A DNA stretch of 64,000 bases from Dehalococcoidia bacterium. GTDB taxonomy: Bacteria > Chloroflexota > Dehalococcoidia > Lucifugimonadales > Australimonadaceae. The notes under the pieces are model-generated. The model searched no databases and was not told the origin of the DNA. It saw only the letters and a program-made list of their open reading frames with translations. A program made the position numbers and the translations under genes. This document shows, in pieces, positions 6,344-57,973 of the stretch; position 1 is the first letter of the stretch, and the number at the start of each line of letters is the position of its first letter. Location: NCBI GenBank assembly GCA_965220655.1, contig CBDCQO010000011.1, positions 39,134 through 103,133 on the forward strand. Reading direction: 5' to 3'.

Positions 6344-6373
6344 CAATCCGTGGGATCAACATCAAGGCACAGG

Positions 6374-40073: not shown

Positions 40074-41168
40074 CTAGAGCCTGTAGAAACGTTTGGCGTT
40101 GCCTCCCAGGACTGCGGCCTTCTGGTCGTCCGAAAGCCCGTCGTCCTTGACGGTCTCCTCAATCTCGTCCATGGCCGACTTGAAGTCGACCTCGTGGGGG
40201 TAGTCGGACGAATAGGCGAAGGGCTCGATTCCCACTCTGCTCGCCAGGTAAGGGAGCGTGGGGTCTACGCCCTCACAGCCGATGAGGACATTGCCGCTGG
40301 CGAGGTACTCTTCCGCCGGACGAGGCGGCGCGCCCGAAAACTCAGCCGCCCGCTGGATCCTGTCCAGGGCGAGTGCTACCCAAGCACAGCCACCCTCCAG
40401 GAACGCGACGCGCATGTCCGGAAAGCGTTCGAAAACTTGGTCGTAGATGAAGGAGACGAACGCGTACAACAGCGGGACAGGGTGGTGAACGATACCAGAG
40501 GTTGTGAGGCTGGTGAACGAGTCGATGCCGATCCCAACGTTCGAGCCTCCATGGACGGCGAGGATACAGCCAAGGTCGGAGGCCTCCTGGTAGACGGGCC
40601 AGTAGTACTCGTGTCCCAGATGGAGGTCGAGACCTGTCGAAGGGAGCATCGCGCCTAACAGCCCCAACTCCTTGACGGCCCGCCGTAGTTCGAGCGCAGC
40701 GCGGGCAGGGTCCTGCATCGGGATCAGCGCGATGGGATGGATCCGGCTGTCGTACCTTTGGTAGCAGTCCGCAACGTAGTCGTTGTACCCACGGCACAGG
40801 CCGACGACGTAGTCCCTGTTTCTCAGTTTGCCGACTTGGAGTCCTTCGGTGGTGTAAACGACGGTCTCCGCCATGCCTGATTTGTCGAGCAGCGCCTGCC
40901 AGTCCTGGGCGGAACCCATCCGATGACCACTGGCATTGATCCGTTTGCGACGGGCGGTAGCATTGTCGCTGGGGGCGACGTTCGTGAAGTGCAGCCCGTC
41001 GAGCGTCCCGAAGAGGCTCGTCTTGCTCAGTTCAATGATTGTGCCGATGCCGCCTGTTCCGAGCGCTGTATCCCGGATCGGTGGATCGAGGAACTCTGCC
41101 ATCTCCTCGATCGACTCGATGATGTGTCCATCAGAGTCCACTATCGTCGGCGTGCTCTCGGTTGTCAT
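40074..41168 (-). CDS. Amidohydrolase family 2 protein
   Basis: DSDGH, AVHG, FLEGG, SSDYPH, GGNAKRFY. Confidence 0.9.
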   Translation of the reverse strand: MTTESTPTIVDSDGHIIESIEEMAEFLDPPIRDTALGTGGIGTIIELSKTSLFGTLDGLHFTNVAPSDNATARRKRINASGHRMGSAQDWQALLDKSGMAETVVYTTEGLQVGKLRNRDYVVGLCRGYNDYVADCYQRYDSRIHPIALIPMQDPARAALELRRAVKELGLLGAMLPSTGLDLHLGHEYYWPVYQEASDLGCILAVHGGSNVGIGIDSFTSLTTSGIVHHPVPLLYAFVSFIYDQVFERFPDMRVAFLEGGCAWVALALDRIQRAAEFSGAPPRPAEEYLASGNVLIGCEGVDPTLPYLASRVGIEPFAYSSDYPHEVDFKSAMDEIEETVKDDGLSDDQKAAVLGGNAKRFYRL

Positions 41169-41350
41169 TGGAACACCTCAGCCCTGATCGCTGTGCCCGT
41201 GGCGAATAGCGTTCGCACGGTAGCACTGTGATACGTTTACGTCAAACTTAAGGCTCATCATGCATGTGAATCGGTATTCACAGCCCAGAGATAACCGGAT
41301 AATGCCGCATCTTCACCGACGGCGAGACGAATCCCCTTGTTCTTGGCACT

Positions 41351-41665
41351 GTGACACCCGCCCCTTACGCGGTCGCCCCGCCATCACGTACGCTGGGATG
41401 CATGACCGCCGCGCACGCAGCACCCATAGACAGAATCTATTGCTCGGGCCGCAGATATAGACACGGTCTATGGCTCCGCTGCGAAAAAGCGTTTTCGATG
41501 AAATCTTGAGTGCCTTGTTGCCCTGAAGCCACGGGAAGCAGGCCGTGGCCACGGAAAACGCCCCGAACAAGATTTCAAGGCACTCAAATGAGGTGGGGGA
41601 TCTACTCGTAAGCGCGGAACAAGAACGTCACTTCAGAGGCCTCGATGAAATCTTGTTCGCGCCCT
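41351..41665 (+). repeat. Dispersed ~300-bp structured element, copy C
   Basis: Head 41351-41407; GGGAAGCAGGCCGTGGCC at 41533-41550; perfect stems 41506-41517/41576-41587 and 41565-41577/41646-41658. Confidence 0.75.
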
Positions 41666-41806
41666 CGACCACCCCGGAAGGAGCCGGTCTGCCTCTTCTC
41701 CTGTTGGAGAGGCGAGGGAGAAGGTGCAGAGGTTGGCGAACGAGACGCATCTGCGATAGCATCCGCCGAGCAGGACGCGGCCGGCGCGGGCCGCGAGGGA
41801 GGCTCT

Positions 41807-42286
41807 ATGACCACGACTCCAGTCAGGCAGACCGTCACGGTCACCGTCAACGGCCAGGAATACACCCGCGAGGTGCCCACTTACCGCACCCTCGTCGACT
41901 TCATCCGCTACGACCTCGGCCTCACCGGCACGAAGGAAGCGTGCAGCGTCGGCGTCTGCGGCGCATGCACCATCGAGCTGGACGGCCGGATCGCCGCATC
42001 GTGCATCACGCTCGCCGTGCGGGCCGACGGCGCGAACATCACCACCATCGAGGGCGTCGCCGACGGCGACACGCTCCACCCCGTGCAGGAGGCGTTCATC
42101 AACCACGGCGGCTTCCAGTGCGGCGCATGCACCCCCGGCCAAATCATGGCCGCCAAGGCGCTGCTGGAGCACAACTCCAGCCCCACTGAGGCAGAGATCA
42201 AGGAATGGATGATGGGGAACCTCTGCCGCTGCACCGGCTACTACCAGATCATCGAGTCCATTCAGGCCGCTGCGGAGGCGAAGTAG
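41807..42286 (+). CDS. Xanthine dehydrogenase family (2Fe-2S) subunit
   Basis: CSVGVCGACT, QCGACTPG, GNLCRCTGY. Confidence 0.92.
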   Translation: MTTTPVRQTVTVTVNGQEYTREVPTYRTLVDFIRYDLGLTGTKEACSVGVCGACTIELDGRIAASCITLAVRADGANITTIEGVADGDTLHPVQEAFINHGGFQCGACTPGQIMAAKALLEHNSSPTEAEIKEWMMGNLCRCTGYYQIIESIQAAAEAK

Positions 42287-42288
42287 CC

Positions 42289-43146
42289 ATGCACGACTTC
42301 ACCTTCCATGCACCCGATTCCCTCTCCGGCGCCCTCGAACTGCTCGCCGAGCACGACGGCGACGCCAAGCTGCTCGCGGGCGGCACGTCGCTCACGACGC
42401 TCCTGAAGCAGTCGCTCATCGCGCCCGACCACATCGTCAGCCTGCACCGCGTGCCCGGCCTCGACTCCATCGAGGCGTCCGGCGGCGAGCTCCGCATCGG
42501 CGGGCTCACCACCCAGCGCGACATGGAGACGTCCGCCGTCGTGAAGGAGCACGCGCCCCTGCTGGCCGAGGCGTACCGCCGCGTCGCCACCGTCCGCATC
42601 AGGAACGTCGCCACGGTCGGCGGCGGCATCGCCCAGGCCGACCCGGCGATGGACCCGCCCCCGTCGCTCCTCATCCTCGGCGCGAGCGTCGTCGCCACTT
42701 CAGCCCGCGGCGAGCGCGTCATCCCCATCGGGGAGGTCTACGCCGACTACTACGAGACGACGCTGGAGCCGGACGAGATCGTGACGGAGCTGCGCGTCCC
42801 CGCCCAGCCTTCCGGCGCAGGTTGGACGTACATCAAGTACCTGCCCCGCACCGAGGACGACTACGCCACCGTCTCCGTCGCCGCGATCGGCAGCGTCGAG
42901 GGCGGCAGCATCGCCGACGTGCGCGTAGCGCTCGGGGCGGTCGCGCCGACCGCGGTGCGCGCCTCGGTCGTCGAGGAGGCGCTGGTTGGCCAGACCCCAA
43001 CGCTCGACGCGCTGCGCGAGGCGTCACAGGCGGTCGCCGACATCGTCGACCCGACCGACGATCCGCGCGGCTCCGCGTGGTACAAGCGGGACATGTCCGT
43101 CGTCTTCACCCGCCGTGCGCTGGAGCAGGTGCTCGGCGTCTCGTAA
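42289..43146 (+). CDS. Xanthine dehydrogenase family FAD subunit
   Basis: LAGGTSL, IRNVATVGG..ADP, RGSAWYK. Confidence 0.9.
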   Translation: MHDFTFHAPDSLSGALELLAEHDGDAKLLAGGTSLTTLLKQSLIAPDHIVSLHRVPGLDSIEASGGELRIGGLTTQRDMETSAVVKEHAPLLAEAYRRVATVRIRNVATVGGGIAQADPAMDPPPSLLILGASVVATSARGERVIPIGEVYADYYETTLEPDEIVTELRVPAQPSGAGWTYIKYLPRTEDDYATVSVAAIGSVEGGSIADVRVALGAVAPTAVRASVVEEALVGQTPTLDALREASQAVADIVDPTDDPRGSAWYKRDMSVVFTRRALEQVLGVS

Positions 43147-43156
43147 GTCCCCCTCT

Positions 43157-44101
43157 CTACCACCAGTGCACCTCGTCGAGCGCCTCGGCGTCCGCGCCGG
43201 TGGCGTCCCATGGCCGCGACGGCAGGTACTTCCACGCCCCGTCCGAGAACATCATGACGATGTTCCCGCTCTCCATCCCCTCCGCGACGCGCAGTGCTGA
43301 GTGCAGCGCCGCGCCGGACGATACCCCGGCGAAGACGCCCTCGGCCCGCATCACGTCCCGCGCCGCCGCGATGGCGCTCGCGCTGTCGACAAGGAAGCGC
43401 CGGTTCAGCAGGCCGAGGTCGAGCAGCGGCGGGATATAGCCTTCCGACAGGCTGCGCAGCCCCTGCAACCGCTCGCCGAGCCTCGGCTCGACGCCCACGA
43501 TCTGCACGTCCGGCCACCGCTCCCGCAGGCGTCGCGCAACCCCGGTGATCGTGCCGCCCGTGCCGATGCCGGCGACGAACACGTCCGCATCGGCCTCTCC
43601 CATCGCCCGAGCGATCTCCTCGCCCGTCGTGGCGTAGTGGCAGCGGACGTTGGCCGGGTCGCTGAACTGGCCGACCGCGTAGTAGCCCGGTTGCTCTGCC
43701 AGCTCCTGCACCCTTCTGATGGCGCCGCGCATCCCGGCCTCCGGCTCGCACCATTCGATCTCCGCGCCGTAGAGGTCCAGGATGTCCGCGATGCTGGGAA
43801 CGATGCCCCGCGGCAGCACGACGCGGACTCGGTAGCCCCGGCGCGGCGCGAGCGCCGCCAGCGCGATGGCCGTGTTCCCGGTGCTCGCCTCCACCAGCGT
43901 CGAACCGGGCTTGAGCGCGCCGCTCTCCTCTGCCGCGTCCAGCATCGCCACCGCTATCCGGTCCTTCACGCTGCCGCTGGGGTTCTGTCCTTCCAGCTTG
44001 GCGAAGAGCCGCACGCCGGGGCGGGGGCTGAGGTTGCGCAGCTCGATGAGCGGCGTGCTCCCCACGAGTGCAGCCAGCGTTCTCTGCCCATCCTGCGCCA
44101 T
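43157..44101 (-). CDS. PLP-dependent cysteine synthase (CysM-like)
   Basis: AKLEGQNPSGSVKDR, ASTGNT, GIGTGGT, GVSSGA. Confidence 0.92.
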   Translation of the reverse strand: MAQDGQRTLAALVGSTPLIELRNLSPRPGVRLFAKLEGQNPSGSVKDRIAVAMLDAAEESGALKPGSTLVEASTGNTAIALAALAPRRGYRVRVVLPRGIVPSIADILDLYGAEIEWCEPEAGMRGAIRRVQELAEQPGYYAVGQFSDPANVRCHYATTGEEIARAMGEADADVFVAGIGTGGTITGVARRLRERWPDVQIVGVEPRLGERLQGLRSLSEGYIPPLLDLGLLNRRFLVDSASAIAAARDVMRAEGVFAGVSSGAALHSALRVAEGMESGNIVMMFSDGAWKYLPSRPWDATGADAEALDEVHWW

Positions 44102-44161
44102 GCGTCGATTCTATCGCGGCGTGTGGGAGGACGATGCGCGCTACCCCGCAGCCGGGAGCCG

Positions 44162-44189
44162 TTGACTCGCCTCCGACGCCTGCTAGAAT
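44162..44189 (+). promoter_or_regulatory. Sigma70-like promoter for the trk cluster
   Basis: TTGACT-N16-TAGAAT; a divergent TAGAAT box lies 6 nt before the cysteine synthase ATG. Confidence 0.55.
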
Positions 44190-44271
44190 TTCCTGTGCCG
44201 TTCTGCAAACGGCTGGAGTTCGCTACGCACACCTCCAACCCAGTCTCCTCGGCGCTCATCGAGGACTTGAG

Positions 44272-45732
44272 ATGAGACGCAACAACTGGCGTCTCCGTCC
44301 GGGCGACCGTGTCGTCAGGCGCCCCCGCCAGAGAGAGACCGCGCCCGTGCGCATCCGCACGCAGGGGAGGCGGCGGCGCTTCACCCTACCCTCATCGTCC
44401 TCGGCGCTGCTGACGCTCGCCGGAGGATTCGCAGCCCTCATCCTGGCAGGCACCGCAATCCTCATGCTGCCGTTCGCGGCAGCCGGGCCGGAGAGCGCCG
44501 GTTTCGTTACCGCACTCTTCACCGCCACTTCCGCCGTATGCGTCACCGGCCTGGTCGTCGTCTCGAGCGGCGACTACTGGAGCGTGTTCGGGCAGGTCAT
44601 CATCGCCGCGCTCATGCTCATGGGCGGGCTGGGCATCATGAGCGCGGGCGTCGTCGTCCTCGCGGTGCTGGGGAGGCGAGTCACGCTGAACCAGCGGCTC
44701 CTCGTGCGGGAGACGATGGGAGGCGAGGCGCTGGGCAGCGCGGTCCGGCTCGTGCGCTACATCATCTGCTTCGCACTGGGAGCGCAGCTCGTCACGTTCC
44801 TGTTGCTGTTCGTCCGGCTCGTGTTCAAGTACCCGGCCATCGAGGCGTTCTGGCAGAGCCTCTTCCATAGCATCTCCGCGTTCAACAACGCAGGTTTCAC
44901 CATCTTCCCTGACTCCAACAGCCTGTCTGCCTTCCAGTCCGATCCCGCCGTGCTCTGGACCATCGGCCTGAGCATCCTTCTCGGTGCGATGAGCTATCCC
45001 GTGATGAACGAACTGGCGCGGCGCAAGGGATTCAGCCGATGGACGCTGGACACGCGCTTGGTCGTGCTCGGAACGCTTGGCCTGTGGGCCACGGGCGCCG
45101 TCACGGTGCTCCTCTTCGAGGTCACGAACCCTCTGACGCTCGGCGGCATGAGCCTGGGAGACAAGATCAGCAACGGCGCGTTCCAGGCGTTCACATCGCG
45201 CACCGCAGGCTTCAGCTCCGTCGACTTCGGCCATGTCGAGGCCGGTACGAGCTACCTCTACATGATGATGATGTTCGTCGGCGGGGCGTCCGGGTCGGTG
45301 GCGGGAGGCATCAAGGTCAACACGGCGATGGTCATCATCGTGGCGACCATCGCGGCGGTGCGAGGGCGACCCAACGTCGAGTTTGCGAGGCGTGAGATCG
45401 CATACTCCCAGGTGAGCCGCGCGCTGGGCGTGCTCGTGCTGGGAGTGGTCGGCGTATCGATGTTCATCATCGCGCTCATGGTCTCCGAGCGGTCGAACCT
45501 CGAAGCAGGAACCTTCGAGTTCGGCGACACGATGTTCGAGACGATGTCCGCCTTCGGCACCGTGGGGTTGTCGCACGGGATAACACCCGACCTCTCCACG
45601 CCCGGAAAGCTCATCATCACGCTGGCGATGTACGTCGGGCGGCTGGGTCCGCTGACAATCGCGCTCGGACTGGCGCTTCGCCAACGCCGGGCGCTGTACC
45701 GATACGCAGAGGAACGCGTTAGAATCGGTTGA
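44272..45732 (+). CDS. TrkH/KtrB potassium uptake membrane subunit
   Basis: Four pore loops: SAVCVTGL, AFNNAGF, SRTAGF, AFGTVGL; MYVGRLGP. Confidence 0.94.
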   Translation: MRRNNWRLRPGDRVVRRPRQRETAPVRIRTQGRRRRFTLPSSSSALLTLAGGFAALILAGTAILMLPFAAAGPESAGFVTALFTATSAVCVTGLVVVSSGDYWSVFGQVIIAALMLMGGLGIMSAGVVVLAVLGRRVTLNQRLLVRETMGGEALGSAVRLVRYIICFALGAQLVTFLLLFVRLVFKYPAIEAFWQSLFHSISAFNNAGFTIFPDSNSLSAFQSDPAVLWTIGLSILLGAMSYPVMNELARRKGFSRWTLDTRLVVLGTLGLWATGAVTVLLFEVTNPLTLGGMSLGDKISNGAFQAFTSRTAGFSSVDFGHVEAGTSYLYMMMMFVGGASGSVAGGIKVNTAMVIIVATIAAVRGRPNVEFARREIAYSQVSRALGVLVLGVVGVSMFIIALMVSERSNLEAGTFEFGDTMFETMSAFGTVGLSHGITPDLSTPGKLIITLAMYVGRLGPLTIALGLALRQRRALYRYAEERVRIG

Positions 45733-45742
45733 GAGGTACGCT

Positions 45743-46405
45743 ATGGCTCACCAGGTAGCCGTCATCGGCATGGGCAGGTTCGGTATAAGCCTGGCACATG
45801 AACTGTACCGCATCGGTCACGACGTGCTTGCCGTTGACCGCGACGAATCGCTCACCCAGATGATGATGGGGCAGGTGACCTATTCCGTCACGGGCGACTC
45901 CACCTCCATGGAGTTCCTGGAGGAAGTGGGCATCCGCAACTTCGACACCGCCGCCGTCGCCATCGGCACGGACATCCAGTCGAGCGTCCTCACCACCGTT
46001 CTCCTGAAGCAGACCTTCGAAGTACCCCAGGTGATGGCGCGCGCCATCAGCGATATCCATGGCAAGACGCTCTCAGCGGTGGGAGCGGACCGCGTCGTGT
46101 ACCCCGAGCAGGAGACCGGAGTGCGTTCAGCGCACAGCCTCTTCCAGCGCGATGTGCTGGAGTACATGGAACTCGCCGGCGGCTTCGGGTTCAGCAAGGT
46201 GAACGTACCCACGGAGATGACCGGCCTGTCGCTGGAGCGGGCAGGGCTGAGCACGGCTCGCGACAAGTACGGCGCGGCGGTCGTCGCCATACGCAGGGGG
46301 CGCGAACCCATCCTCTCGCCATCCAAGGACGAGGTGTTGCAGGAAGGTGACCTGCTCATCCTCGCAGGCAGGGAAGACACGCTCGAACGTTTCGGGCTTC
46401 AGTAA
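45743..46405 (+). CDS. TrkA/KtrA RCK regulatory subunit
   Basis: IGMGRFG, VVYPE, TrkA_C domain. Confidence 0.92.
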   Translation: MAHQVAVIGMGRFGISLAHELYRIGHDVLAVDRDESLTQMMMGQVTYSVTGDSTSMEFLEEVGIRNFDTAAVAIGTDIQSSVLTTVLLKQTFEVPQVMARAISDIHGKTLSAVGADRVVYPEQETGVRSAHSLFQRDVLEYMELAGGFGFSKVNVPTEMTGLSLERAGLSTARDKYGAAVVAIRRGREPILSPSKDEVLQEGDLLILAGREDTLERFGLQ

Positions 46406-46408
46406 GGC

Positions 46409-46861
46409 ATGGCAAAGATCGAACGCGCCCTCGCTCTCGTCACCGGCACTTCGATGGACAAGACCGTCGTCTCCATCGCATGCGACCTCGTGCGTCCTTA
46501 CAAGGGACAGGTCTGGGCGCTCTACGTCATCGAAGTCGGACGGAAACTGCCACTGGACGCGGAGTTGCCGAACGAGACCGCGCGCGGCGAACATCTGCTG
46601 CAGCGCATGGAGGCGTTCGGCAAGACGCTCAAGTGCAAGGTGGAGGGCGACATCCTGCAGGCCAGGGACACGGGGGCAGCCATCGTGCGGGAAGCGGCCG
46701 ACCGCCAGACCGACGTCATCGTCGCAGGCATGCCCTACACCGAACACTACGGCAGCCCATCGCTCGGCGACATGGTGCCTTACGTGCTGCGTCACAGCCA
46801 CTGCCGGGTCGTCGTCTACCGGGAGCAGCAGCCCGAGCCAATTCCGGATGGCTCCTCATGA
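46409..46861 (+). CDS. Universal stress protein
   Basis: YVIEV, QARDTGAAIV, LG..V.YVLRHSHCRV. Confidence 0.85.
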   Translation: MAKIERALALVTGTSMDKTVVSIACDLVRPYKGQVWALYVIEVGRKLPLDAELPNETARGEHLLQRMEAFGKTLKCKVEGDILQARDTGAAIVREAADRQTDVIVAGMPYTEHYGSPSLGDMVPYVLRHSHCRVVVYREQQPEPIPDGSS

Positions 46862-47262
46862 CGCGCCACGTGATGATCGTCGGCTGTGGCAGGCTTGGGG
46901 CGACCGCTGCGAATGCGCTGCTCGACCGGGGCGACCGCGTCACGATACTCGATACGGACGCCGAGAACTTCCGGCGCCTGCGCCCCCGCGTCCGGCTCAG
47001 CATGTACGTCGGCGACGGCACATCCCACGAAGTGCTGCGGCGCACCGGCATCGAGTCCGTAGGAGCGTTCATCGCCGCCACGGGGCGGGACACGACCAAC
47101 GCGCTCGCGGCGCAATCGGCCCGGACCACGTTCGGCATCGAGCACGTCGTGTGCCGCATCAACGATCCGACCAGGAGCGAGATGTACGAGCGGCTGGGGC
47201 TCACCACTGTGAACCCGAACCAGTTGCTCATCGAACTTGTATTGGACGCGATGGAGCAGTAG
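46858..47262 (+). CDS. TrkA_N-only protein
   Basis: IVGCGRLG, GDGT, DTTN; 134 aa, no C-terminal domain. Confidence 0.85.
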   Translation: MTRHVMIVGCGRLGATAANALLDRGDRVTILDTDAENFRRLRPRVRLSMYVGDGTSHEVLRRTGIESVGAFIAATGRDTTNALAAQSARTTFGIEHVVCRINDPTRSEMYERLGLTTVNPNQLLIELVLDAMEQ

Positions 47263-47265
47263 CGG

Positions 47266-47937
47266 ATGTACGTCATCGTCGTCGGCGCAGGCAAGATAGG
47301 CTTCTACCTCACCCGCGAGCTTCTCGCCGCGAGTCACGAGGTTGCGCTCATCGAACGTGATGCCTATGTGAGCGCCAACGCGGCGGAAGAGTTCGGCTCC
47401 ATCCTCATCACCAGCGACGGCACCGAGCCCACCGTGCTCGGCGAGGCCGGAGCGGAACGGTGCGACATCCTCATATCCACAACCGGCCAGGATGCGACGA
47501 ACCTGACCGCATGCCAGGTGGCCAAGTACTCGTTCAACGTCCCCAAGACGATGGCCGTGGTCACCGACCCCGATCACGTGCCGCTCTTCCGTGCGCTGGG
47601 TGTCGACGTAACGATCAGCACCACCGAACTCATCCTCTCGCACGTTGAAGAGGAGCTCACCGGCGGGCCGTTCGTCCACGTACTCCCTCTCCGTGGGGCA
47701 GCGAGCGGCATCGTCTCCATGCGCGTGCCGAGCGGGTCTCCGGTGGTAGGTCAGCCTGTATCCCGCATCAAACTGCCGCAGGGCACGCTGCTGACCGCGG
47801 TGATCCACAAGAACGGCGAACTCAAGCCTGCCGTCAACGACCCTGAATTGGCAGCCGACGATGCCATCGTCGCCATCACTCCGCCGGAGAAGGAAGACGA
47901 GCTGTGGCACGCGCTCACCGGGGAGGCGTGGCGATGA
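47266..47937 (+). CDS. TrkA family protein
   Basis: VVGAGKIG, DATNL.ACQVAK, TrkA_C domain. Confidence 0.9.
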   Translation: MYVIVVGAGKIGFYLTRELLAASHEVALIERDAYVSANAAEEFGSILITSDGTEPTVLGEAGAERCDILISTTGQDATNLTACQVAKYSFNVPKTMAVVTDPDHVPLFRALGVDVTISTTELILSHVEEELTGGPFVHVLPLRGAASGIVSMRVPSGSPVVGQPVSRIKLPQGTLLTAVIHKNGELKPAVNDPELAADDAIVAITPPEKEDELWHALTGEAWR

Positions 47938-49085
47938 AGATCGCTTACCTCGGGCCGCAGGGCACGTTCTCTGAGCAGGCTGCGCTCGACTATGCGCGCC
48001 ACGACGCGGAGTTCATCGCGTACCCTTCGATCACCGCGTCGGCGATGGCCGTCCTGCACGGCAAGGCCGACGAGGCCGTCTGCCCCATTGAGAACAGCTA
48101 CCAGGGCGCAGTCACCGACACGCTCGACGTATTGCTGCACGAGGAAGGGCTGCACATCCGCCAGGAATTGACCCTGGACATCGTGCACAACCTGATGGTG
48201 AAGCCCGGCGTCGTGCTGGCTGCGGTGAAGCGCGTGTACTCTCACCCACAGGCGCTCGGCCAATGCCGCAGGTACCTGGAGCAGCACCTGCCGGATGCGG
48301 AACTCGCGGCATCGCTCAGCACTGCCGAGGCGGTCGAACGGGCGATCGCCTCGGACGTGCCCTCGGCCGCCATCGCGCCGAGCCGGTCCGCGGAACTCTA
48401 CGGCGCTCAGATACTCGCGCCCGGTATCCAGGACGACGACAACAACGTCACCCGGTTCGTCGTGCTCGGCAAGAGCGATCACCCGCGCACCGGCAACGAC
48501 CTCACCTCGGTAGCGATGGAGTTCTCAGAGGACAAACCCGGCCAGCTGTTCGGCGTGCTCAAGGCGTTCGCGGAGCGCAGCATCAACCTCACCAAGATCG
48601 AGTCGCGCCCGACCCGGCTGGGACTGGGCAAGTACTACTTCCTCCTAGACATCGAGGGGCACGAGGACGATTCAACACTGGCGGAAGCACTCAGCCAAGT
48701 GGAACAGCTAACTTCACGAATAATTCGATTCGGCTCCTACCCCCGCGCGGGCATCGAAGCTTACCTCACGGAATCAGTGCAACATATCGCGACGCAACGT
48801 GGTTATCGCCCACAATTGGATGCACTGCGATCAGGGAGGCGCATCGATTTGCTTCTGCAATCCGAAGAAGGCGAGATTGGCGTAGAAATTCGTGCAACCT
48901 CTTCCATCGACGGCATCGCAGGAATGACCGCGGCCTTTCGCGACGCCGGGCTGGCACAGGCGATCTTCGTGTTCGCGGACCCTACGGTGGCAGAGAGAGC
49001 GCGCACCGCAGCCGCAGGGTGGCCGGAGGAACTCGCCGCTACGGCTGTCTTCACGACCGCCGAGCACATCGGCGAGCTGTTGTAG
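47934..49085 (+). CDS. pheA: Prephenate dehydratase with extra C-terminal domain
   Basis: AYLGPQGTFS, PIENS, SHPQALGQC, NVTRF, NLTKIESRP, GSYP, then about 110 extra residues. Confidence 0.92.
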   Translation: MKIAYLGPQGTFSEQAALDYARHDAEFIAYPSITASAMAVLHGKADEAVCPIENSYQGAVTDTLDVLLHEEGLHIRQELTLDIVHNLMVKPGVVLAAVKRVYSHPQALGQCRRYLEQHLPDAELAASLSTAEAVERAIASDVPSAAIAPSRSAELYGAQILAPGIQDDDNNVTRFVVLGKSDHPRTGNDLTSVAMEFSEDKPGQLFGVLKAFAERSINLTKIESRPTRLGLGKYYFLLDIEGHEDDSTLAEALSQVEQLTSRIIRFGSYPRAGIEAYLTESVQHIATQRGYRPQLDALRSGRRIDLLLQSEEGEIGVEIRATSSIDGIAGMTAAFRDAGLAQAIFVFADPTVAERARTAAAGWPEELAATAVFTTAEHIGELL

Positions 49086-49094
49086 CCGCCGACG

Positions 49095-49406
49095 CTACTT
49101 CGTCTTACCGCGCAACCCGCCTACGAAGTTGATCAGTATGCCCAGTCCGTTTGCGAGCGACGCAGTACTTCCCTCCGCGGATGGGGAAGACATGTATTTC
49201 AATGCAGCCCCGGACGCTCTGTTGACGTTGTCCAACGTATCGTTGACGTTATCGACCGTCCTGGTCATTGAGCCAAGCAGGCGCCGGACTGCCCTGAGCA
49301 GCATGAAGGCTGCTACCAGCAGAACGAGCAGGACAAGGATCCCCACCACGAGGTAGGCGCTGACGAGGATGTCGCGTATCAGCGTTACCGTTTCTTGGTC
49401 AAACAA
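49095..49406 (-). CDS. Hypothetical single-TM protein
   Basis: N-terminal TM plus coiled-coil-like segment; TTG start after GGAG. Confidence 0.65.
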   Translation of the reverse strand: MFDQETVTLIRDILVSAYLVVGILVLLVLLVAAFMLLRAVRRLLGSMTRTVDNVNDTLDNVNRASGAALKYMSSPSAEGSTASLANGLGILINFVGGLRGKTK

Positions 49407-49505
49407 GGTTCTTCTCCCTGCCTCTGCGGGCTGCCCGGTCGCTGCGCGTCTTCGCGCACGGATGCGTCATTCTACCGTTGCCTGCCGCTCCTCCGCACCG
49501 CCAGG

Positions 49506-52500
49506 TCACGCCCCGGTCTCCAGCACACGATAGACCGTAACCTCCTGGTTGGCAAAGAAGACCTCGAGTGACAGCCCCACCATCGCGTCGAACTTCTCCA
49601 GCCCCGGCCCCGGGAAGTACACGCGCTCCGTAGGCCCGACGTAGACGTACTCGACGCCGTATTCCGACGCGAGGTCGAGGAAGAGACGCTCGCTCGAGGT
49701 CTCGTACATCAGACTGACGTCGTAGATGCGTCCGCGCACGGCGGCGGGTTCATCTCCGCCCGCGCCCCGCTGCTGTGTCTGGTGCCACTGCCAGCCGACC
49801 ACCACGGGCAGTCCGGTGTACTTGGCCACGCGCGGAGGCCAGCGGTACGCATGCGCAGTGACTCCCTCGAGGAACACCGGAGAGCCCTCGACGTTCGCAC
49901 GGATGAAGTCGATGGCCTCGGCGTCGTAACTCAACGCGTATCGCGCCTCGGGCAGCCCTTTGCTCGGCTCGGCCGGATCGCCGTAAACCGTCGTCCACTG
50001 ATACGCGTGCCCATCCAGTGTCATACCCACTGACGTATCGAATCTGTCCGCGAGGCGCGCCCGCGTGCCGAGCACTGGGAAGACAGCGCTGGCCAGCACG
50101 AGGATGGCCAGCGCGCCCAGCCAGACCTTGCCCCCCTTGCTGCCGAAGCGGACGGCCCCCGATGTCCATACGTGCCACAGCCCAACGCCTCCCACGATGC
50201 CGAACATCACCCACGCGTTCAGGTACAACTTGAACACGGTGTTCATCCGGTCTATGTCGTTCTCGACGGTCACGAAGTCCACGCCGACGCCGATACCCAG
50301 CGCAAGGACGAGCATGCCCAGCAGGAGCAGGTGCACTGGAGCAGCGCGCTCGTTGCTCCGGAAGAGCCAACCCAATGCAACCACCGACGCCCACAGGATG
50401 ACCAGCGACAGCAGCGCCACCGTCAGCCACTCCCGCAACGTGTCCGACCACACGAACGCGCCACCCACGAGCGCCAGCAACAGCAACCCGACCGCCGGCA
50501 CGGCCCGTCCACGCCATCCCATACCGCCCGCGTCTTCGCTCTCCGGCGCAGCCCTCTTGAACAGCTGCCGCGTCTCGAACACGAGCCAGGAGAGCACTGC
50601 GAACAGCAGCAGGGCGTGTATGGCGAGGTACTGCCAGAGCACTGTCCGCCACTCGCTCAGCTTCACGCCTGAGGCGGGGGCCTCGTAGTGCTGGTGGAAC
50701 GGCAGCCACGCCGCGTAGAGCACTCCCCAGAACAGCGCGGCCAGCAGCAGCCCCTTCGCGACCGTCATCGGTTCCGGCGGGCCGCCGCGTACGAACAGCG
50801 CGATGGCGACCGCCGCGAGGCCCAGCAGGCCGTACGCGGGCACTTCCCATGTGTTGATCGCGGCGAACGACCCCACGACGAACGCGAGCCCTGCGAGCGC
50901 GGGCAGCAGCCTTCGCAGCGGGACCGCCTTTCGCGCCCCCAGAACGAGGTTCGCCGCCAATCCGATGGCAAGCACCTGGAAGGGGAGCGATATGAGATGC
51001 GCATGGAGGTCGCCGAAGAGGAACGTCCAGAACGGGAACTCGTTGATCGCTATCTGGTCCGGCATCAGGCGGCTGCTGCGCCAGAAGTCGAAACGCCCGA
51101 ACGATTCGTCCGTGATGCTGCGCCACGCACCCTGCAGCAGTTGCGCGGCGCCGTCCACGTTCGCCAGCACCGTCACGAGGAGTGCAGCGCCCACCCCCGC
51201 CCAGACCGGGCTACCGCGGCGCGCCATCTGTGTGCCTCGCTGTCGCAGCGCTTCCGCCAGGTTGTAGCCCACGCCGAACGCGCCCGTCAGCGTGAATGCG
51301 AACAGCATCGGCAGCGCGAGGTTGTACGCGACCTCCGGCACGATGCCGGTCAGGCGTACCAGGGCCGCGACGGGCACGAACCCGTAGTAGTAGTAGTTGA
51401 TGAAGCCTCCGGCATACCACGGGTCGTAGGGCGGGAAGGTGGACGACTTCACGACGGCGATGAGGTAAGCCATGTCCATCGGCTTCTCGCCGCCGCGCCA
51501 CGCGTGCCAGAGGTCCGGGTTCGCGGCCCGCACCAGCACGAATACGAGATAGGCCGCGATGAACAGCGCCTCCACGCTCGCGATGTACTTCCAATGACGC
51601 TTCGCCAGCCCGATGAGCCATCGGTTGCGGTAGAGCAGCACGCCGGAGACCACGGCCAGCAGCAGTATCGAGAGCGCCACACTGACGCGAGAGAACGTCC
51701 ACACGCCAAGGCTCGCTCCCATCCACACCAGCCACGACACCAGCAGCAGCGCCAGCGGTTTCGCGAGCACGACGCCTCTGTCCGGCAACCAGCGCATCAG
51801 GCGCACGGCGAGCGGAAGTCCGGCGAGGAAGACGACTTCGATAGCGACCAGCCAGACGAGCCAGGGCGCCCAGTCGTTCAGCCCACCCTCGTCGAAGATG
51901 TCCGTCCATGTGCCGCCAGCCTGCTGCACGGCACGATCCTCGTCGCTCAGCAACGCTCTCTCGGGCGGCGGGTCGAGATCACCCAGGAACATGATGGCGC
52001 TGATGTCGTGCTCGCTGAGGCGCTCAACGTTCTGCCACACGAGCACGAGGGGATGGTCGTAGTTCGTGACATTCTCGTCCGCGTAGCCCAGGTCGAGCGC
52101 AAGCGCGCCGGTCTCCACGCCCGGCACACTCTCCGGGCGCTCCATGCCTGCAACCGTGAACGGGTCGTGCACGAACGACACACCCGCGAGGGTGGGGTAG
52201 CGGGCGAAGCCGCGCACGAGTTCGAAGCCAAGTTCACCGGAGAAGAGGGCCCGGTAGTACGCCGCGCTGTAGGGATAGCGCTCCGGCACCCGGGAGATGC
52301 TCCCCCAGGGCCGGTTGCTGTACGACATGATGTAGTCGGCCCTGGCGACCTGATCGGCCACCTCTGACGCCTTATTGAACGTATCGCCCTCGTACATGCG
52401 CAACTGGTCGACGTTGAACCGTCCGAGGTTCGGAAAGCCCTCGTCCCAGTGGTTGTCGGTCACGACGTTCGAGCGGGATGGAGCGTTCTCGTTCATCCAG

Positions 52501-53933
52501 GCGGACGCCTGTATGCCCGGGTGGTCCGTGAAGTAGATCGAGGCGAACGCGAGCGCGTAGAAGGCGGTCGAGGCCACGACGAACGCCATCACCGCTTTGA
52601 CGACACGCTCCCACGCGACCCCGCGCGCCCGCGCGAACCGGTACGCCTCCATGAGCCAGTGGCTTCCGAGCAGGACGAGCACGAGCAGCGTTGGGGCCAC
52701 GTAACGCAGGAACTTCACTTCGAAGAGCGGCACGATGCCTGCGAGGAGGACGACGACCCACGAGATGAGCAACCACTCGCCGATGCGCGGACGCCGCAGC
52801 CCCGCTATCAGGGACGCAGCCAGTCCTCCCCACGCAACGACGCCAAGCGGCAGGCCCAGGGCCCAGACCGAGGTCTGGCGGAGTTCGTACAGGCCGTTGC
52901 GCGGTATGCCGACGTACTGGAGCGTGTACGGCACGAGTCCGGCAGTGCGGGCGACCATCCCTTCCCAGCCGAGGTCCGCCACGTACTTCCGGTAGTCGAT
53001 CAGCGCGTACGGCTGTAGCACGATGAAGGTGAGGAGGGCAACGCCAAACGCGAGCAAGGCGGGACGCACCATAGGTTGTACGAGTGGCCAGCCCTTTTCG
53101 CCGGTCTCCCACTGCCGCCACAGGAGCGCAGCGTAGGTGAGAGCGACCGGCGCGAGTATCGGCAGGCTGCTGCCCCTGAACGCGAAGGTCATCCCGATGA
53201 CGAAGCCGAGAACGGCGTGGTCGCGGAGGCGCCCGCGCTCCAGAACGTTCAGCATCCACCAGAAGGCGACGAGCGCCAGCAGCACCACGAACGACTCGGG
53301 GCGGTAGAAGTGCGTGACCTGGATGTTGAAGACGGTGAAGGCCCCGAGCGCGGCGGCGAGCAGGCCGGCGCCGTGCCCGAAGAGCCGCCGTCCCAGGAAG
53401 AACAGCAGCACTATCGAGGCCGTATCCGCGAACGCCGCCAACGCGCGCCCCGCCGATGCCAGGTCCTCCAGCCGCACCTGGTCCATGAACGGTTCCAGGA
53501 CGAAACGGATGCCAACCAGCAGGTAGATGATGATGGTGCCGAGCGGGAACCAGTGCGGATTGAGCGGGCTTGCGTCCTTATCCAGGAACGTGCCGATGCC
53601 GGGGAAGCCCGGCCTGTCCTCCGGGAAATCGCGGTTCTGGCACGAGTTCCACCCCGGAGCCTCGGTCAGTACGCGGTACATGCAGTCCGCGCGGAGATAG
53701 ATCGAGCGCTCGTCAGGGTGATAGAAACTGCCCCCGTCCCAGTCGAGGCCATGCAGCCGCAGGCCGAGCGCGGCGGCGGCAATCACGAGCAGGACGAAGA
53801 CCCAGGCGGGAGCAGCCCTGAGCCAACCACGCACCAGCGCGAGCTCGACGGCCACGCTCGACGGTCGCTCCTGCGGCTCAGTCTCCGTGGCGCTGGGCGG
53901 GGAAGGCAGCGCGTCGGTTGACATATCGCTCAC
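49506..53933 (-). CDS. Large membrane protein: PMT/GT-C glycosyltransferase-like domain fused to YYY (DUF2298) domain
   Basis: HPDER, WDEG, GGEKPMD, PPYDPWYAG..INYYYYG, NEFP..FLFGDLHAH, RMNTVFKLY, GWQWHQTQQR. Confidence 0.88.
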   Translation of the reverse strand: MSDMSTDALPSPPSATETEPQERPSSVAVELALVRGWLRAAPAWVFVLLVIAAAALGLRLHGLDWDGGSFYHPDERSIYLRADCMYRVLTEAPGWNSCQNRDFPEDRPGFPGIGTFLDKDASPLNPHWFPLGTIIIYLLVGIRFVLEPFMDQVRLEDLASAGRALAAFADTASIVLLFFLGRRLFGHGAGLLAAALGAFTVFNIQVTHFYRPESFVVLLALVAFWWMLNVLERGRLRDHAVLGFVIGMTFAFRGSSLPILAPVALTYAALLWRQWETGEKGWPLVQPMVRPALLAFGVALLTFIVLQPYALIDYRKYVADLGWEGMVARTAGLVPYTLQYVGIPRNGLYELRQTSVWALGLPLGVVAWGGLAASLIAGLRRPRIGEWLLISWVVVLLAGIVPLFEVKFLRYVAPTLLVLVLLGSHWLMEAYRFARARGVAWERVVKAVMAFVVASTAFYALAFASIYFTDHPGIQASAWMNENAPSRSNVVTDNHWDEGFPNLGRFNVDQLRMYEGDTFNKASEVADQVARADYIMSYSNRPWGSISRVPERYPYSAAYYRALFSGELGFELVRGFARYPTLAGVSFVHDPFTVAGMERPESVPGVETGALALDLGYADENVTNYDHPLVLVWQNVERLSEHDISAIMFLGDLDPPPERALLSDEDRAVQQAGGTWTDIFDEGGLNDWAPWLVWLVAIEVVFLAGLPLAVRLMRWLPDRGVVLAKPLALLLVSWLVWMGASLGVWTFSRVSVALSILLLAVVSGVLLYRNRWLIGLAKRHWKYIASVEALFIAAYLVFVLVRAANPDLWHAWRGGEKPMDMAYLIAVVKSSTFPPYDPWYAGGFINYYYYGFVPVAALVRLTGIVPEVAYNLALPMLFAFTLTGAFGVGYNLAEALRQRGTQMARRGSPVWAGVGAALLVTVLANVDGAAQLLQGAWRSITDESFGRFDFWRSSRLMPDQIAINEFPFWTFLFGDLHAHLISLPFQVLAIGLAANLVLGARKAVPLRRLLPALAGLAFVVGSFAAINTWEVPAYGLLGLAAVAIALFVRGGPPEPMTVAKGLLLAALFWGVLYAAWLPFHQHYEAPASGVKLSEWRTVLWQYLAIHALLLFAVLSWLVFETRQLFKRAAPESEDAGGMGWRGRAVPAVGLLLLALVGGAFVWSDTLREWLTVALLSLVILWASVVALGWLFRSNERAAPVHLLLLGMLVLALGIGVGVDFVTVENDIDRMNTVFKLYLNAWVMFGIVGGVGLWHVWTSGAVRFGSKGGKVWLGALAILVLASAVFPVLGTRARLADRFDTSVGMTLDGHAYQWTTVYGDPAEPSKGLPEARYALSYDAEAIDFIRANVEGSPVFLEGVTAHAYRWPPRVAKYTGLPVVVGWQWHQTQQRGAGGDEPAAVRGRIYDVSLMYETSSERLFLDLASEYGVEYVYVGPTERVYFPGPGLEKFDAMVGLSLEVFFANQEVTVYRVLETGA

Positions 53934-54013
53934 GAACGGCAGGCCGCGAACCTACGGCGTGGGCGCGGGCCTGCACATATGCGATGCGCAGGCCCGCGGC
54001 GAAGTGCCGTGCC

Positions 54014-55027
54014 TCAGAGGCCTCTCTCCGCGATCATCGCCGTGAGGTCGGATGTGCGGCAGGAATAACCCCATTCGTTGTCGTACCAGCCGAGCACCTT
54101 CACCATGTTGCCCTCCATCACCATGGTGGAGTCGGCGTCGAAGATGCAGCTGGCCGGGTTCATCTTGATATCGCTGCTGACGATGGGGTCTTCGGTGTAT
54201 TCGAGGATGCCGTTCAGCGCGCCCTCGGCGGCCTTCCGGAACGCCTCGTTCACCTCTTCCTTCGTCACGTCGCGCCCGACGTCGGCGACGAAGTCGGTGA
54301 TGGAGCCCGTGGGCACGGGCACGCGCAGCGCCATGCCGTGCAGCTTGCCGTTCAGCTCTGGGATCACTACGCCGACGACCTTCGCAGCACCAGTGCTGGT
54401 GGGGATGATGTTGGACGCGGCGGCGCGGGCGCGGCGCATGTCCGAGTGCACCTGGTCGAGGATCTGCTGGTCGTTCGTGTAGGCGTGGACGGTGGTCATC
54501 AACCCGTGCTGGATGCCGAACTCGTCGTTGAGCACCTTGATGAGTTGCGCCACGCAGTTGGTCGTGCAGGACGCGTTGGAGAGCACGTGGTGCGCGTCCG
54601 GGTCGTACTCGTCGGCGTTCACGCCCAGTACGAGCGTCTTGTCCTCGCCGGTGGCGGGCGCGGAGATGATGACCTTCTTCGCTCCGGCCTCGATGTGGCC
54701 CGCGGCTTTCTCGCGCTGCGTGAAGATGCCCGTGGACTCGATGACGATGTCCACGCCGAGGTCTCCCCACGGCAGGTCGGCGGGGTTCCGCTCCGAGAGC
54801 GACTGGATGAGACGCCCATCCACCTCGATGCCGCCGTCCACGGCCTGCACCGTGCCGGGGTAGCGCCCGTAGTTCGAGTCGTACTTGAAGAGGTGCGCGT
54901 TCGCCTGCGGGGCCGCGAGGTCGTTCACCGCGACCACTTCCAACTCGTCCGGATGCCGTTCCAACGTCGCCCGGAGCACCTGCCTGCCGATGCGCCCAAA
55001 GCCGTTGATGCCAACTCTCGTGCTCAT
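54014..55027 (-). CDS. gap: Glyceraldehyde-3-phosphate dehydrogenase, type I
   Basis: [26 protein letters not shown]. Confidence 0.98.
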
Positions 55028-55111
55028 ACGCCTCTTTCTCCTCCTTGCGTAAGCCTCGTTCCTGAGGCTGTTCCATGCTATAGACCGTTCGCCTGCACAA
55101 CAAGGCGCGGG

Positions 55112-55573
55112 TCAGGCCGTACGGCTGACCGCGTCGCTCGCCGGTTGCCATGTTTCGTTGTGGATGCTGTCGCCGATCCATTCCCGCAGTTCGATGCCGA
55201 TACCGTTGGGGTCGAGGATCTCCGCGCGCCAGCCGTTGAAGGACGAGCCCGACTTCGGCTCCTGCACGAACGTCACGCCGCGCTCGCGCAGGGCGGCAGC
55301 GGTCGCCTCCATGTCCTCCACCGTAAGAGCGATGGCCTTGACGCCCATGCGCCCCACGTCCACCTCCTCGGATGCACGCTCTGAAGGAGCGGCGATGAGC
55401 TCCACCATCATGTCGCCGAGGGTGATGCACGCCTGTTCGTGCGCCGTGCCATCCGGTCTGTGCGCCACCGTGGTGCGCAGGTGCCGGAAGCCGAGGACGT
55501 CCGTGTAGAACGTCAGCGACTCCTTCATGTCTTTCGCCCAGACCTCGACGTGGTCCATACCCGTGATGCCCAT
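55112..55573 (-). CDS. VOC family protein
   Basis: DHVEV, FYTDVLGF, DPNGIGIEL. Confidence 0.85.
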   Translation of the reverse strand: MGITGMDHVEVWAKDMKESLTFYTDVLGFRHLRTTVAHRPDGTAHEQACITLGDMMVELIAAPSERASEEVDVGRMGVKAIALTVEDMEATAAALRERGVTFVQEPKSGSSFNGWRAEILDPNGIGIELREWIGDSIHNETWQPASDAVSRTA

Positions 55574-55577
55574 CTCG

Positions 55578-56933
<1,356 letters not shown>

Positions 56934-57485
56934 TCAGTGCGCCGCAGCACGCTCCCGCGCGTCGCGCTCATGCGCAGCGGCTATCGCCTTCTCCACCGCG
57001 TCCACGGGCGAGTCTGCGCGCGTGATCTCCAGCGGGTAGCCGTCGCCGCTCGCCATCTCCCACGTCTCGAGGCCGATGACCGGCGTGCCGTCGCCCAGCG
57101 CGTGGGCTATCTCGGAGAGCGTGCCGTATGCGCCGTCCACGGCGATGGCCGCGCGCCCCGTCTTGACCACGATGACGTTCCGCGCGTAGCCCATGCCGGT
57201 CATCACGGGGTAGTCCACCCACGGATTCGCGGCGCGCGGGTCGTCCCCGGGCATCATTCCTATCGTGACGCCGCCCGCGGACTTGGCCCCCCTGCACGCA
57301 GCCTCCATCACGCCGCCGAGCCCTCCGCACACCACAACCGCGCCGCGTTGAGCGAGCTCCCGCCCCACGGCCTCCGCGAGTTCGTAGGCTCGGGCAGAGG
57401 GCGCGCCGCCTCCTATCACCGAGATGAGCAGGGGGCGTTCAGAAGCGTCCGATGGATGCGAGGTGTTGGTCGGGGGGTTCGTCAT
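56934..57485 (-). CDS. LOG family protein (TIGR00725-like)
   Basis: CGGLGGVMEAACRGAK, GMGYARN, GAYGTLSEI. Confidence 0.9.
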   Translation of the reverse strand: MTNPPTNTSHPSDASERPLLISVIGGGAPSARAYELAEAVGRELAQRGAVVVCGGLGGVMEAACRGAKSAGGVTIGMMPGDDPRAANPWVDYPVMTGMGYARNVIVVKTGRAAIAVDGAYGTLSEIAHALGDGTPVIGLETWEMASGDGYPLEITRADSPVDAVEKAIAAAHERDARERAAAH

Positions 57486-57539
57486 ACTCTGGCCCGTGCG
57501 GCGCCTTCGATTCTACCAGCCGAGCCCGGTTGGGGGTGA

Positions 57540-57844
57540 CTAGTGATTAAGGACGTCAACGAGCCTGCCTGGTGACATTCTTAATCGTCGCTCTAGGAGT
57601 AAAACGGCTGCGCCATCTGACATCCTTAATCCCTTTGCCCAGCCCGTTTCCATGGCCGTGGCCTGCTTCCCGCCATTAAGGAAGTAACAATGTCAACGAA
57701 AACAAAGTTCTGCGCCGCCGCCCATAGATTCTGTCGATGGACGGGGGCGCGAGCCATAGACGCGGTCTATGGGTGCTGCGGGCGGGACGGTCATGCAGCC
57801 AGCGTACGCGGTAGGGGCGCGACCGCGAAAGGGGCGGGTGTCGC
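57540..57844 (-). repeat. Dispersed ~300-bp structured element, copy D
   Basis: Head 57789-57844; GGGAAGCAGGCCACGGCC at 57654-57671; ATTAAG(G/A)A motif present four times in both orientations. Confidence 0.72.
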
Positions 57845-57973
57845 AGACGTTATCCGGTGACAACGGCTGTGTGCGTCGGTTAGGACAGGGCTCACCCGAG
57901 AGATGTTTCGACTCCGCCTGCGGCTCCGCTCAACATGACAACGCCCGCTCCGCCGCACCCCACCGCGTGCGCT

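Follow-up and report, generated by a model that had tools for sequence, protein, structure and literature searches.

What are the roughly 300-bp non-coding sequences that stand between genes at three places in a 64,000-nucleotide stretch of a Dehalococcoidia genome, sharing conserved landmarks and carrying complementary arms whose sequence differs from copy to copy? The stretch, hereafter the window, is G000:C11:39134–103133, i.e. part of contig C11 of assembly G000 (2.8 Mb, 66.5% G+C, 12 contigs, 93% complete), and the comparison took in four genomes of a genus of sponge- or coral-associated Chloroflexota, G000 itself and its congeners G397, G433 and G490. An initial annotation had named the three regions A, C and D and described them as collinear copies of one element, either a structured RNA or something mobile. 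The regions exist, align end to end and lie on the strands claimed: copy C at 41353–41659 on the plus strand, copy A at 6341–6055 and copy D at 57842–57545, both on the minus strand. We find that all three are gene-less short forms of a cassette of about 2 kb, made up of a head, a single gene for a protein of about 510 amino acids and a tail, and that cassette and derivatives form an undescribed dispersed family restricted to the genus. That the element belongs to no recognized family was borne out by Rfam, which at gathering score matched a tRNA alone in the whole window (RF00005, 32716–32789 (−), 70.8 bits) and in release 15 gave 0 matches at E ≤ 10 over 41300–41720. PADLOC returned no significant match to a defence system (best E 0.0014, partial), and a limited literature search, with supplementary files outside its scope, found no description of the element.

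A BLAST comparison of copy C with its own genome returned head and tail matches about 1.6 kb apart with an open reading frame (ORF) of about 510 amino acids between them, and the longer, ORF-bearing copies for which the initial annotation had proposed a search were found in G000. There are three of these, at C8:104901–106424 (His class, see below), C8:145796–147364 (Val class, intact) and C12:351146–352661 (broken and frameshifted), together with one divergent long copy at C12:747289–748695 that encodes a 49%-identical paralogue; the same genome holds 15 short copies. Across 13 long copies examined, from G000, the three congeners and two Dehalococcoidia metagenome-assembled genomes, the head always starts 48 nucleotides (nt) before the start codon. 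The ORF is uninterrupted in 12 of the 13 (491–567 amino acids), and in 12 the stop codon falls 24–61 nt before the conserved core of the tail, inside its first arm, the exception being the divergent copy L040, in which no stop precedes the core. Because the start codon lies 6–7 nt past the −10-like element of the head, the mRNA would be leaderless. Non-orthologous long copies have no flanking gene in common by tblastx, which argues that the unit consists of promoter, one gene and tail.

The short copies are of two kinds. Some are plain internal deletions of the long form, namely copy A, the copy at C12:259690 and the copy that G433 holds at the site of D. In copy A what is left of the ATPase ORF, its two ends, is fused behind the head, GATGCAACGGAATGAGCCACC in the interior corresponds to the 3' end of the ORF in long copies, ATAGAC palindromes are absent, and the arms are of type TGCGCACCTTGTTC. 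The second and commonest, 'standard' kind consists of a head, two palindromes of the form ATAGAC-N3-GTCTAT, usually 30–32 nt apart, and a tail. Copies C and D belong here, with 15-bp palindromes at 41426–41440 and 41457–41471 in C (31 nt apart) and at 57724–57738 and 57756–57770 in D. Four matches to the palindrome with at most two mismatches lie in the window against 0.57 expected, a number that none of 100 shuffles reached, and 15 of the 16 matches in G000 with at most one mismatch are inside short elements. The palindrome module occurs with tails of the main protein lineage and also with those of the 49%-identical paralogue, and it did not appear in the starts and ends of long copies, which were the parts inspected.

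Short and long copies can be matched through their arms: copy D, whose arms are of type TGACGTCCTTAATC, and the copy at C4:271440 go with the intact long copy at C8:145796, and copy C and the copy at C12:259887 go with C8:104901. About half of the short copies in G000 have such a counterpart among the long ones, and the others appear to be orphans. The claim that the short copies conserve no reading frame was upheld, since the first ORF past the promoter ranges from 1 to 107 amino acids and its frame shifts (the scan took in 15 short copies and gave an ORF for 14, the last one having no −10 match). A small peptide that short copies would encode from their leaderless ATG, in many cases beginning MT..AAPID.VY, was considered and rejected because neither this length nor the frame is conserved; in copy C, ATG codons stand 4 and 8 nt past the −10, at 41398 and 41402.

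The tail consists of about six units of ~10 nt, each made of TG, a 5–6-nt box specific to the copy, and then CTTGGTC, CTTGTTC, CTTAATC or CTTGATC. Across 30 tails, the set also used for arm scores, consensus folding and conservation, the units follow one order, two in plus sense (arm 1), the core, two in minus sense (arm 2), then one minus (arm 3) and one plus (arm 4). In copy C, arm 1 (41497..41520) holds the two tandem plus units GATGAAATC and TTGAGTGCCTTGTTG, directly preceded by the A/T-rich stretch GAAAAAGCGTTTTC. Between arms 1 and 2 lies the core 18-mer GGGAAGCAGGCCGTGGCC (41533..41550), which contains the palindrome AGGCC-GT-GGCC; arm 2 (41565..41587) holds the minus units GAACAAGATTTCA and AGGCACTCAA. 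The linker TACTCGTA (41603..41610; family consensus TYACTC) is followed by arm 3 (41617..41630), a single, partly decayed minus unit GAACAAGAACGTCA, and by arm 4 (41644..41659), a single plus unit GATGAAATCTTGTTCG that forms the right end of the element, as similarity between copies ends right after this unit in an alignment of 33 tails. The 18-mer is, as first described, identical in C and A (6182–6165) and changed in D (57671–57654), where GT is replaced by AC. The TACTC(G/C)TA linker and all the stems quoted in the initial annotation were likewise found, including the perfect alternative pairings of C, in which arm 2 is complementary to arm 1 over 12 bp and also to arm 4 over 13 bp.

The complementarity within copies is real, and the view that it is only pairwise is wrong, as the four arms of a copy share one copy-specific box. 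All six possible arm pairings score higher within copies than between them: the direct pairs arm 1/arm 4 and arm 2/arm 3 reach 10.1 vs 6.6 and 10.2 vs 7.3, and the inverted pairs 10.6 vs 7.1 and 11.5 vs 7.0. (In the tail alignment MAFFT misaligned arm 4 where boxes of 5 nt meet boxes of 6 nt.) The unit of copy C, TGAAATCTTGTTC, occurs eight times in G000 with one mismatch allowed, in all eight cases within 260 nt of a tail core, and for the five least G+C-rich of ten unit types tested every occurrence in the genome is likewise no more than 260 nt from a tail core. The copy-specific sequence is therefore a repeated word rather than half of one helix, which points to a factor that reads sequence on duplex DNA.

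The candidate for this factor is the product of the long copies. Its residues 117–338 match Pfam AAA_25 (E 3.8e−13), and NCBIfam and PHROGs gave weak P-loop matches only, to DnaB-like helicases. An AlphaFold model of the full protein has a modest mean predicted local distance difference test (pLDDT) score of 61.7, and its best fold matches are KaiC, RecA, Rad51 and RadA (E ~3e−6). The C-terminal 109 residues, modelled alone (mean pLDDT 77.1), form three helices and a beta-hairpin, as in a helix-turn-helix with a beta-wing, and nearly all of the Protein Data Bank (PDB) matches listed are winged-helix regulators of the LmrR/PadR, MarR and ArsR types; Pfam reached HTH_IclR for this part at E 0.16 only. 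One polypeptide is thus predicted to combine a RecA/KaiC-fold ATPase with a C-terminal winged-helix DNA-binding domain. In the N-terminal domain C35, C40, C42, H49, C50, H53, C75 and C78 are invariant among 35 homologues, and the domain probably binds zinc. A Pfam search with its first 115 residues alone reached nothing significant (best E 0.17). The motif CPSH...PTLT may resemble the CHC2 zinc finger of the DnaG and T7 gp4 primases; no search result supports this, and Pfam searches with the whole protein and with its terminal parts detected no primase domain. Two further features of the protein were also seen, a strongly acidic linker of D/E runs, of low model confidence, inside the ATPase domain (residues ~225–275 of P0001) and a variable Pro-rich insertion of up to ~60 residues before the winged helix (~395 of P0001) in L035 and L045–L048.

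Homologues at 57–94% identity are numerous, and of the 8,000 candidates that were scored 207 reached E ≤ 0.001; all 120 of those listed carry PF13481, and the few named ones are 'AAA family ATPase' of Chloroflexota. The protein occurs in 1 of 121 genomes sampled from the order and in 4 of 401 from the class, these being G000 and its three congeners. A profile search gave 54 clusters at 1e−30 and 7,680 at 1e−10, which marks the proteins as a narrow offshoot of the broad AAA_25 family; in the ESM Atlas the closest clusters consist of AAA_25 proteins from Actinomycetota and phages. Searches of 72,556 plasmid and 50,697 phage records turned up no close relative, and a scan of genome contigs gave 2 loci only.

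Protein and site appear to change together. The putative recognition helix reads G-[ILV]-[ST]-[KR]-x-[TAS]-L-x-R-A-R, and in a comparison of 17 long copies the residue x directly before R-A-R sorts with the box in the arms. His goes with GAAATC, GGAATC and GGATTC (GRAWTC; five copies), Val with GACATC, GACACT, GACATT and GAGTCC (four types), Phe with GGCACC and GGCACT (four copies) and Ala with GGCATC (one copy), and Arg is found with the G+C-rich boxes GGTCAC, GGCCCC and GCACAC, which end in CC or AC (three copies). The second part of the unit, CTTGGTC, CTTAATC, CTTGTTC or CTTGATC, shows no dependence on this residue. In a tree built from the N-terminal and ATPase part of the protein, copies of one residue class do not group as a clade. 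At each chromosomal site that was compared between genomes, moreover, the four arms of a copy differ jointly from the arms of other copies.

The head has a different standing. The initial annotation had counted a ~55-bp head among the hallmarks of the element, and it is indeed present in the copies, in C as GACACCCGCCCC (41353..41394 (+)) with a −35-like TTACGC, an 18-nt spacer and a −10-like TACGCT, but it is not specific to them. A relaxed pattern of this 40–52-nt module, with the consensus TGTGACAC-N-CGCCCCTT(G/A)CGC, ~18 nt, TACGMT, matches 88 places in G000 (for example C2:22886 (+), C12:214444 (−), C12:277945 (−), C8:29030 (−) and C8:306754 (−)), and ORFs that start 6–7 nt past the matched −10 look by eye like PncB, DinB, LexA, GroES and SbcD. 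Because the matches include such ordinary-looking genes, the head would be the general strong promoter of the organism rather than a signature of the element, its promoter activity being read from the sequence.

One head without a tail lies in the window at 8989 (+). It belongs to a second dispersed family that uses the same head, seen at 8989–9150 (+) of the window and at C4:98241 (+), C4:145437 (−), C6:20970 (−) and C7:38852 (−), in which the head is followed by GGTGACGGCGC, a conserved GCAGGAGTG and three tandem copy-specific repeats of ~10–11 nt. Two copies have AATGTCCC as their repeat, one has AATGAGA and one AATGTTAC, an iteron-like design.

With about even confidence, and by analogy, we read the cassette as a self-loading initiator-helicase with an iteron origin, of the Rep-ori type known from Staphylococcus aureus pathogenicity islands (SaPIs), and the short copies as its non-autonomous promoter-plus-origin derivatives. 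A strong housekeeping-type promoter would drive a leaderless mRNA for a protein of ~510 amino acids with a Cys/His-rich N terminus, an AAA_25 ATPase of RecA/KaiC/DnaB fold and a winged helix, and from the stop codon onward an origin-like site would follow, in which about six iteron-like units surround a GC-rich palindromic core. The winged helix would read the copy-specific box on double-stranded DNA, the opposed units would seat two ATPase rings so that they flank the core, and the cassette would in this way load its helicase at its own origin, as a SaPI Rep does. The short forms would keep the cis parts alone, i.e. promoter and origin-like site, most of them with the two-palindrome module added, and would depend in trans on a long copy of matching specificity.

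The SaPI Reps are initiator-helicases whose C-terminal winged helix recognizes iterons, and directly downstream of rep come 6–12 iterons that a centre divides into equal halves, at least two per side and in opposite directions (PMC9371898). Set against SaPIs and related phage-inducible chromosomal islands (PICIs), the cassette is alike in joining an ATPase motor and a (here predicted) C-terminal winged helix in one polypeptide, in having short repeats directly downstream of the gene as two opposed sets round a centre, and in a specificity that varies between elements. It differs in its motor, which has a RecA/KaiC-like AAA_25 fold, in the extra inverted pair formed by arms 3 and 4 with the TYACTC hairpin, in carrying no integrase, primase or packaging genes, and in being dispersed over the chromosome in 15–25 copies, with gene-less derivatives. 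The minimal replicon of pRN1 offers a second comparison, consisting of an essential promoter, the rep gene and, directly downstream of it, a ~100-nt stem-loop that is the putative origin; its ORF904 is a prim-pol with an SF3 helicase on a free plasmid (PMC4234260). Promoter, replication-type gene and a stem-loop-like site right downstream of the gene are common to both, whereas our protein is a RecA-fold ATPase with no primase domain detected and the copies seen are all chromosomal.

Several points weigh against the initiator-origin reading. Between the two iteron sets the centre is a conserved G+C-rich palindrome, GGGAAGCAGGCCRYGGCC followed by TTGGAAACRCCCC, where SaPI origins have an A/T-rich tract, and the sole A/T-rich stretch, AACTTTTGAAAAC, lies upstream of arm 1, outside the centre. 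The likeness to SaPI Reps is one of architecture only, with no detectable sequence similarity, and a PDB sequence search gave no match beyond the RecA P-loop and no homology to known Rep initiators. With neither primase nor integrase gene in the cassette, a replicon by itself leaves the 15–25 dispersed chromosomal copies unexplained. The winged-helix match of the C terminus is weak and below the usual threshold (best E 0.018, TM 0.48). The link between residue and box is drawn from only 17 copies, the tree of the C-terminal domain is poorly resolved, and because helix and arms are only ~250 bp apart co-inheritance may explain part of the correlation. The orphan short copies, about half of those in G000, have no intact arm-matched long copy and nevertheless keep intact arms, which would be unexpected if the arms served solely as sites for a cognate protein. 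Finally, three features suit single-stranded RNA or DNA better than, or as well as, duplex sites: a third hairpin with a conserved TYACTC loop and stems that vary yet pair, the excess of G·U over A·C mismatches in stem-loop 1, and the conservation of the 18-mer at a loop position.

These last features bear on an alternative that we consider rather unlikely, a structured non-coding RNA of ~270 nt made from the short copies, or an untranslated 3' structure in the mRNA of the long ones, that would fold into an arm 1/arm 2 hairpin with the 18-mer as its loop, an arm 3/arm 4 hairpin and a small TYACUC hairpin and would act in cis or trans, e.g. on the ATPase mRNA or with a partner protein. A promoter-like head precedes every copy, the short copies have no conserved ORF, and single tails do fold into two hairpins at −50 to −87 kcal/mol; the ACTC of the linker is invariant in 30 of 30 aligned tails, and in several copies (e.g. 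L037 and L048) TYACTC is the loop of the short hairpin whose stems differ between copies and still pair. Other results weaken the two-stem-loop proposal of the initial annotation. RNAalifold on the 30 tails gave a weak structure of −5.85 kcal/mol that pairs arm 1 with arm 3 rather than arm 2, with changes on both sides in 3–13 sequences per base pair. Compensatory changes are abundant but link all four arms, which one fixed fold would not require, and the arms are tandem units of ~10 nt.

An RNA would also be expected to favour one strand, and no asymmetry appeared in 28 tails (mean minimum free energy −65.3 for the plus strand vs −66.5 for the minus strand, plus lower in 13 of 28). Mismatches in stem 1 are 33 G·U, 11 A·C and 72 others; in stem 2 the bias is opposite (16 G·U, 29 A·C, 53 others), and over both stems those that are neither G·U nor A·C are the commonest (49 G·U, 40 A·C, 125 others). 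No terminator-like U-run follows arm 4 in copies A, C and D, and the failure of Rfam to match even at E ≤ 10 points the same way. Sequencing data comprised 24 runs, five of them RNA, all metatranscriptomes with small shares of the query; in contigs from four RNA runs over 40500–58200 the bin of copy C had depths of 0.24, 5.73, 0 and 0 (contigs cannot show absence), and one low-confidence contig joint links 57670 to 57786 (side 25) inside copy D. In runs X16 and X17 RNA contigs both start at 41746, just past a −10-like GCGATAGCAT, and this is possibly the transcription start of the gene that begins near 41810.

The copies recur far more often than chance would allow. Counts of the exact 17-mer GGAAGCAGGCCRYGGCC in the four genomes of the genus are 15 (G000), 15, 25 and 20, and its reversed control is in none of the four; of 397 further genomes sampled from the class, five have a single match each. 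If one mismatch is tolerated the core has 20 matches in G000, and 18 of these are true tails, complete with arms and linker. At all three sites compared across the four genomes the elements differ in presence or absence, in type and in orientation. At site C, G000 has a short copy of type TGAAATCTTGTTC, G397 one of type TGAAATCTTGGTC, G433 one of type TGAACACCTTGTTC and G490 none; at site D the standard short form of G000 corresponds to an inverted short copy with a variant tail in G397, to an internal-deletion short form in G433 and to a long copy in G490; and at site A, where G000 has its internal-deletion form, G397 and G433 have nothing and G490 has a standard short copy with other arms. 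Upstream of one dehydrogenase-like gene stands a His-type long copy in G000 and G433 and a Val-type one in a metagenome relative, and in G490 the same gene borders an inverted Phe-type copy. Because sister species hold other types, other orientations or nothing at the same sites, the elements turn over between species, though this pattern could also arise if alleles were exchanged by homologous recombination in the genes on either side.

A stronger claim, which taken whole we hold to be unlikely, is that this is a new kind of chromosomal mobile element, with a RecA-fold ATPase of reprogrammable winged helix as its sole protein, which would spread by replication from its iteron site without transposase or integrase, leave satellites like miniature inverted-repeat transposable elements (MITEs), and set its specificity by a pairing of one residue with one box (His/GAATC, Val/GACAT, Phe/GGCAC), new and mutually insulated lineages arising through the co-variation of protein and site. 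No circular form was found in metagenome contig L076 (2,296 nt), which has no terminal overlap and carries chromosomal flanks.

A more conventional transposon, in which the arms are end-recognition sites and the ATPase, alone or with an unlinked nuclease or recombinase, mobilizes the cassette and its derivatives, we regard as distinctly unlikely. The 15–25 copies per genome would suit it, as would the ends and specificity types common to long and short forms, the variation at the same sites in sister species, and two further decayed forms in G000, a long-type head joined straight to arm 3/arm 4 at C12:566622–566720 (+) (AACAAGATGTGCA...TGCACACCTTGCTC) and a lone inverted pair of TGGCAYYCTTGATC units with no core at C11:174604–174632. 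The arms, however, are all at one end. The left end is a promoter, and by eye the ~40 nt before the heads show no arm-like site or terminal inverted repeat, only faint resemblances such as GAATCCCCTTGTTC upstream of copy C. Nor is there, by eye, a target-site duplication flanking C and D, and no clean empty site or target duplication could be defined at the compared sites because the intergenic regions are too divergent and full of other repeats. No gene for a transposase, an integrase or a HUH nuclease is part of the cassette, and the whole genome gave matches to four tyrosine recombinases, one rve and no IS110 DEDD domain.

The MITE-like option of the initial annotation fits to this extent, as does its option of symmetric protein-binding sites: gene-less copies outnumber long ones in G000 (15 against three plus the divergent one), they carry the cis sites and specificity types of the long copies, and some are plain internal deletions. 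They depart from MITEs in that terminal inverted repeats at both ends, target-site duplications (by eye) and a transposase were not found, and in that the commonest short form has a two-palindrome module of its own, on tails of both lineages. The likeness to IS110 bridge RNAs that was also suggested fails. In IS110 and IS1111 elements a non-coding segment beside the gene gives bridge or seek RNAs whose hairpin-like modules act on target and donor DNA, and here too a promoter-led non-coding segment adjoins a gene and has two copy-specific hairpin-like modules; but the copy-specific segments are complementary to each other and, in the flanks inspected, not to flanking DNA, the associated protein is a RecA-fold ATPase and no recombinase, and no DEDD_Tnp_IS110 domain (PF01548) was found in G000 by a search that matched 6 of 14 control genomes. 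In REP/RAYT 'REPtrons', many short repetitive extragenic palindromic (REP) sequences are tied to a Y1/HUH transposase gene that they flank. The cassette resembles them in its many palindromic intergenic repeats that also stand at the flanks of a specific protein gene, and differs in having a winged-helix ATPase of RecA fold where they have the transposase, and in that its repeats are copy-specific composite sites of ~150 bp.

That the protein merely binds repeats behind its own gene as autoregulatory or roadblock sites controlling its own or a neighbour's transcription, with the short copies as functionless relics, is very improbable, for although the winged-helix fold, the link between helix residue and box and the position of several copies just upstream of genes with their own promoters would agree with it, the sites are found downstream of the gene and not where its promoter is, and because arms, core and promoter of the short copies are intact and their commonest form has its own palindrome module they do not look like products of passive decay.

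Two other repeats were observed near copies of the family. A REP-like repeat, CCCCTCGCCCCCTGGGAGAGGGG...GGGTGAGGGTTG, is very common between genes in the genus and often abuts either end of the cassette, for example downstream of the tail of L031, at ~41680–41720 of the window and in G490 at L056:1300–1500. Another motif that recurs between genes, CCATCCTGTCCATC(G)ATGTTGAT, stands immediately upstream of several heads and, in one case, downstream of a tail (window ~6344–6375, upstream of copy A; G000 C12:351060–351095 and C7:43300–43330; left flanks of L044 and L045), and its reverse complement resembles a ribosome-binding site with a start codon (AGGATGGACAGG).

For annotation, the intergenic repeats and the adjoining 'AAA family ATPase' genes are best treated together, and the conserved head would be the general promoter of the organism and no part of a new RNA. 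If the initiator-origin reading is true, the genus carries undescribed minimal 'initiator-helicase plus origin' cassettes, multicopy in the chromosome, whose DNA-recognition specificity diversifies and from which gene-less satellites of promoter plus origin are left behind. The Rep-ori logic of SaPIs and small plasmids would then extend to another motor fold without an integrase, which raises the question of the route by which a single-gene, recombinase-free element reaches new sites. The apparent pairing of one residue with one box would, in turn, represent a small natural set of orthogonal protein-DNA pairs.

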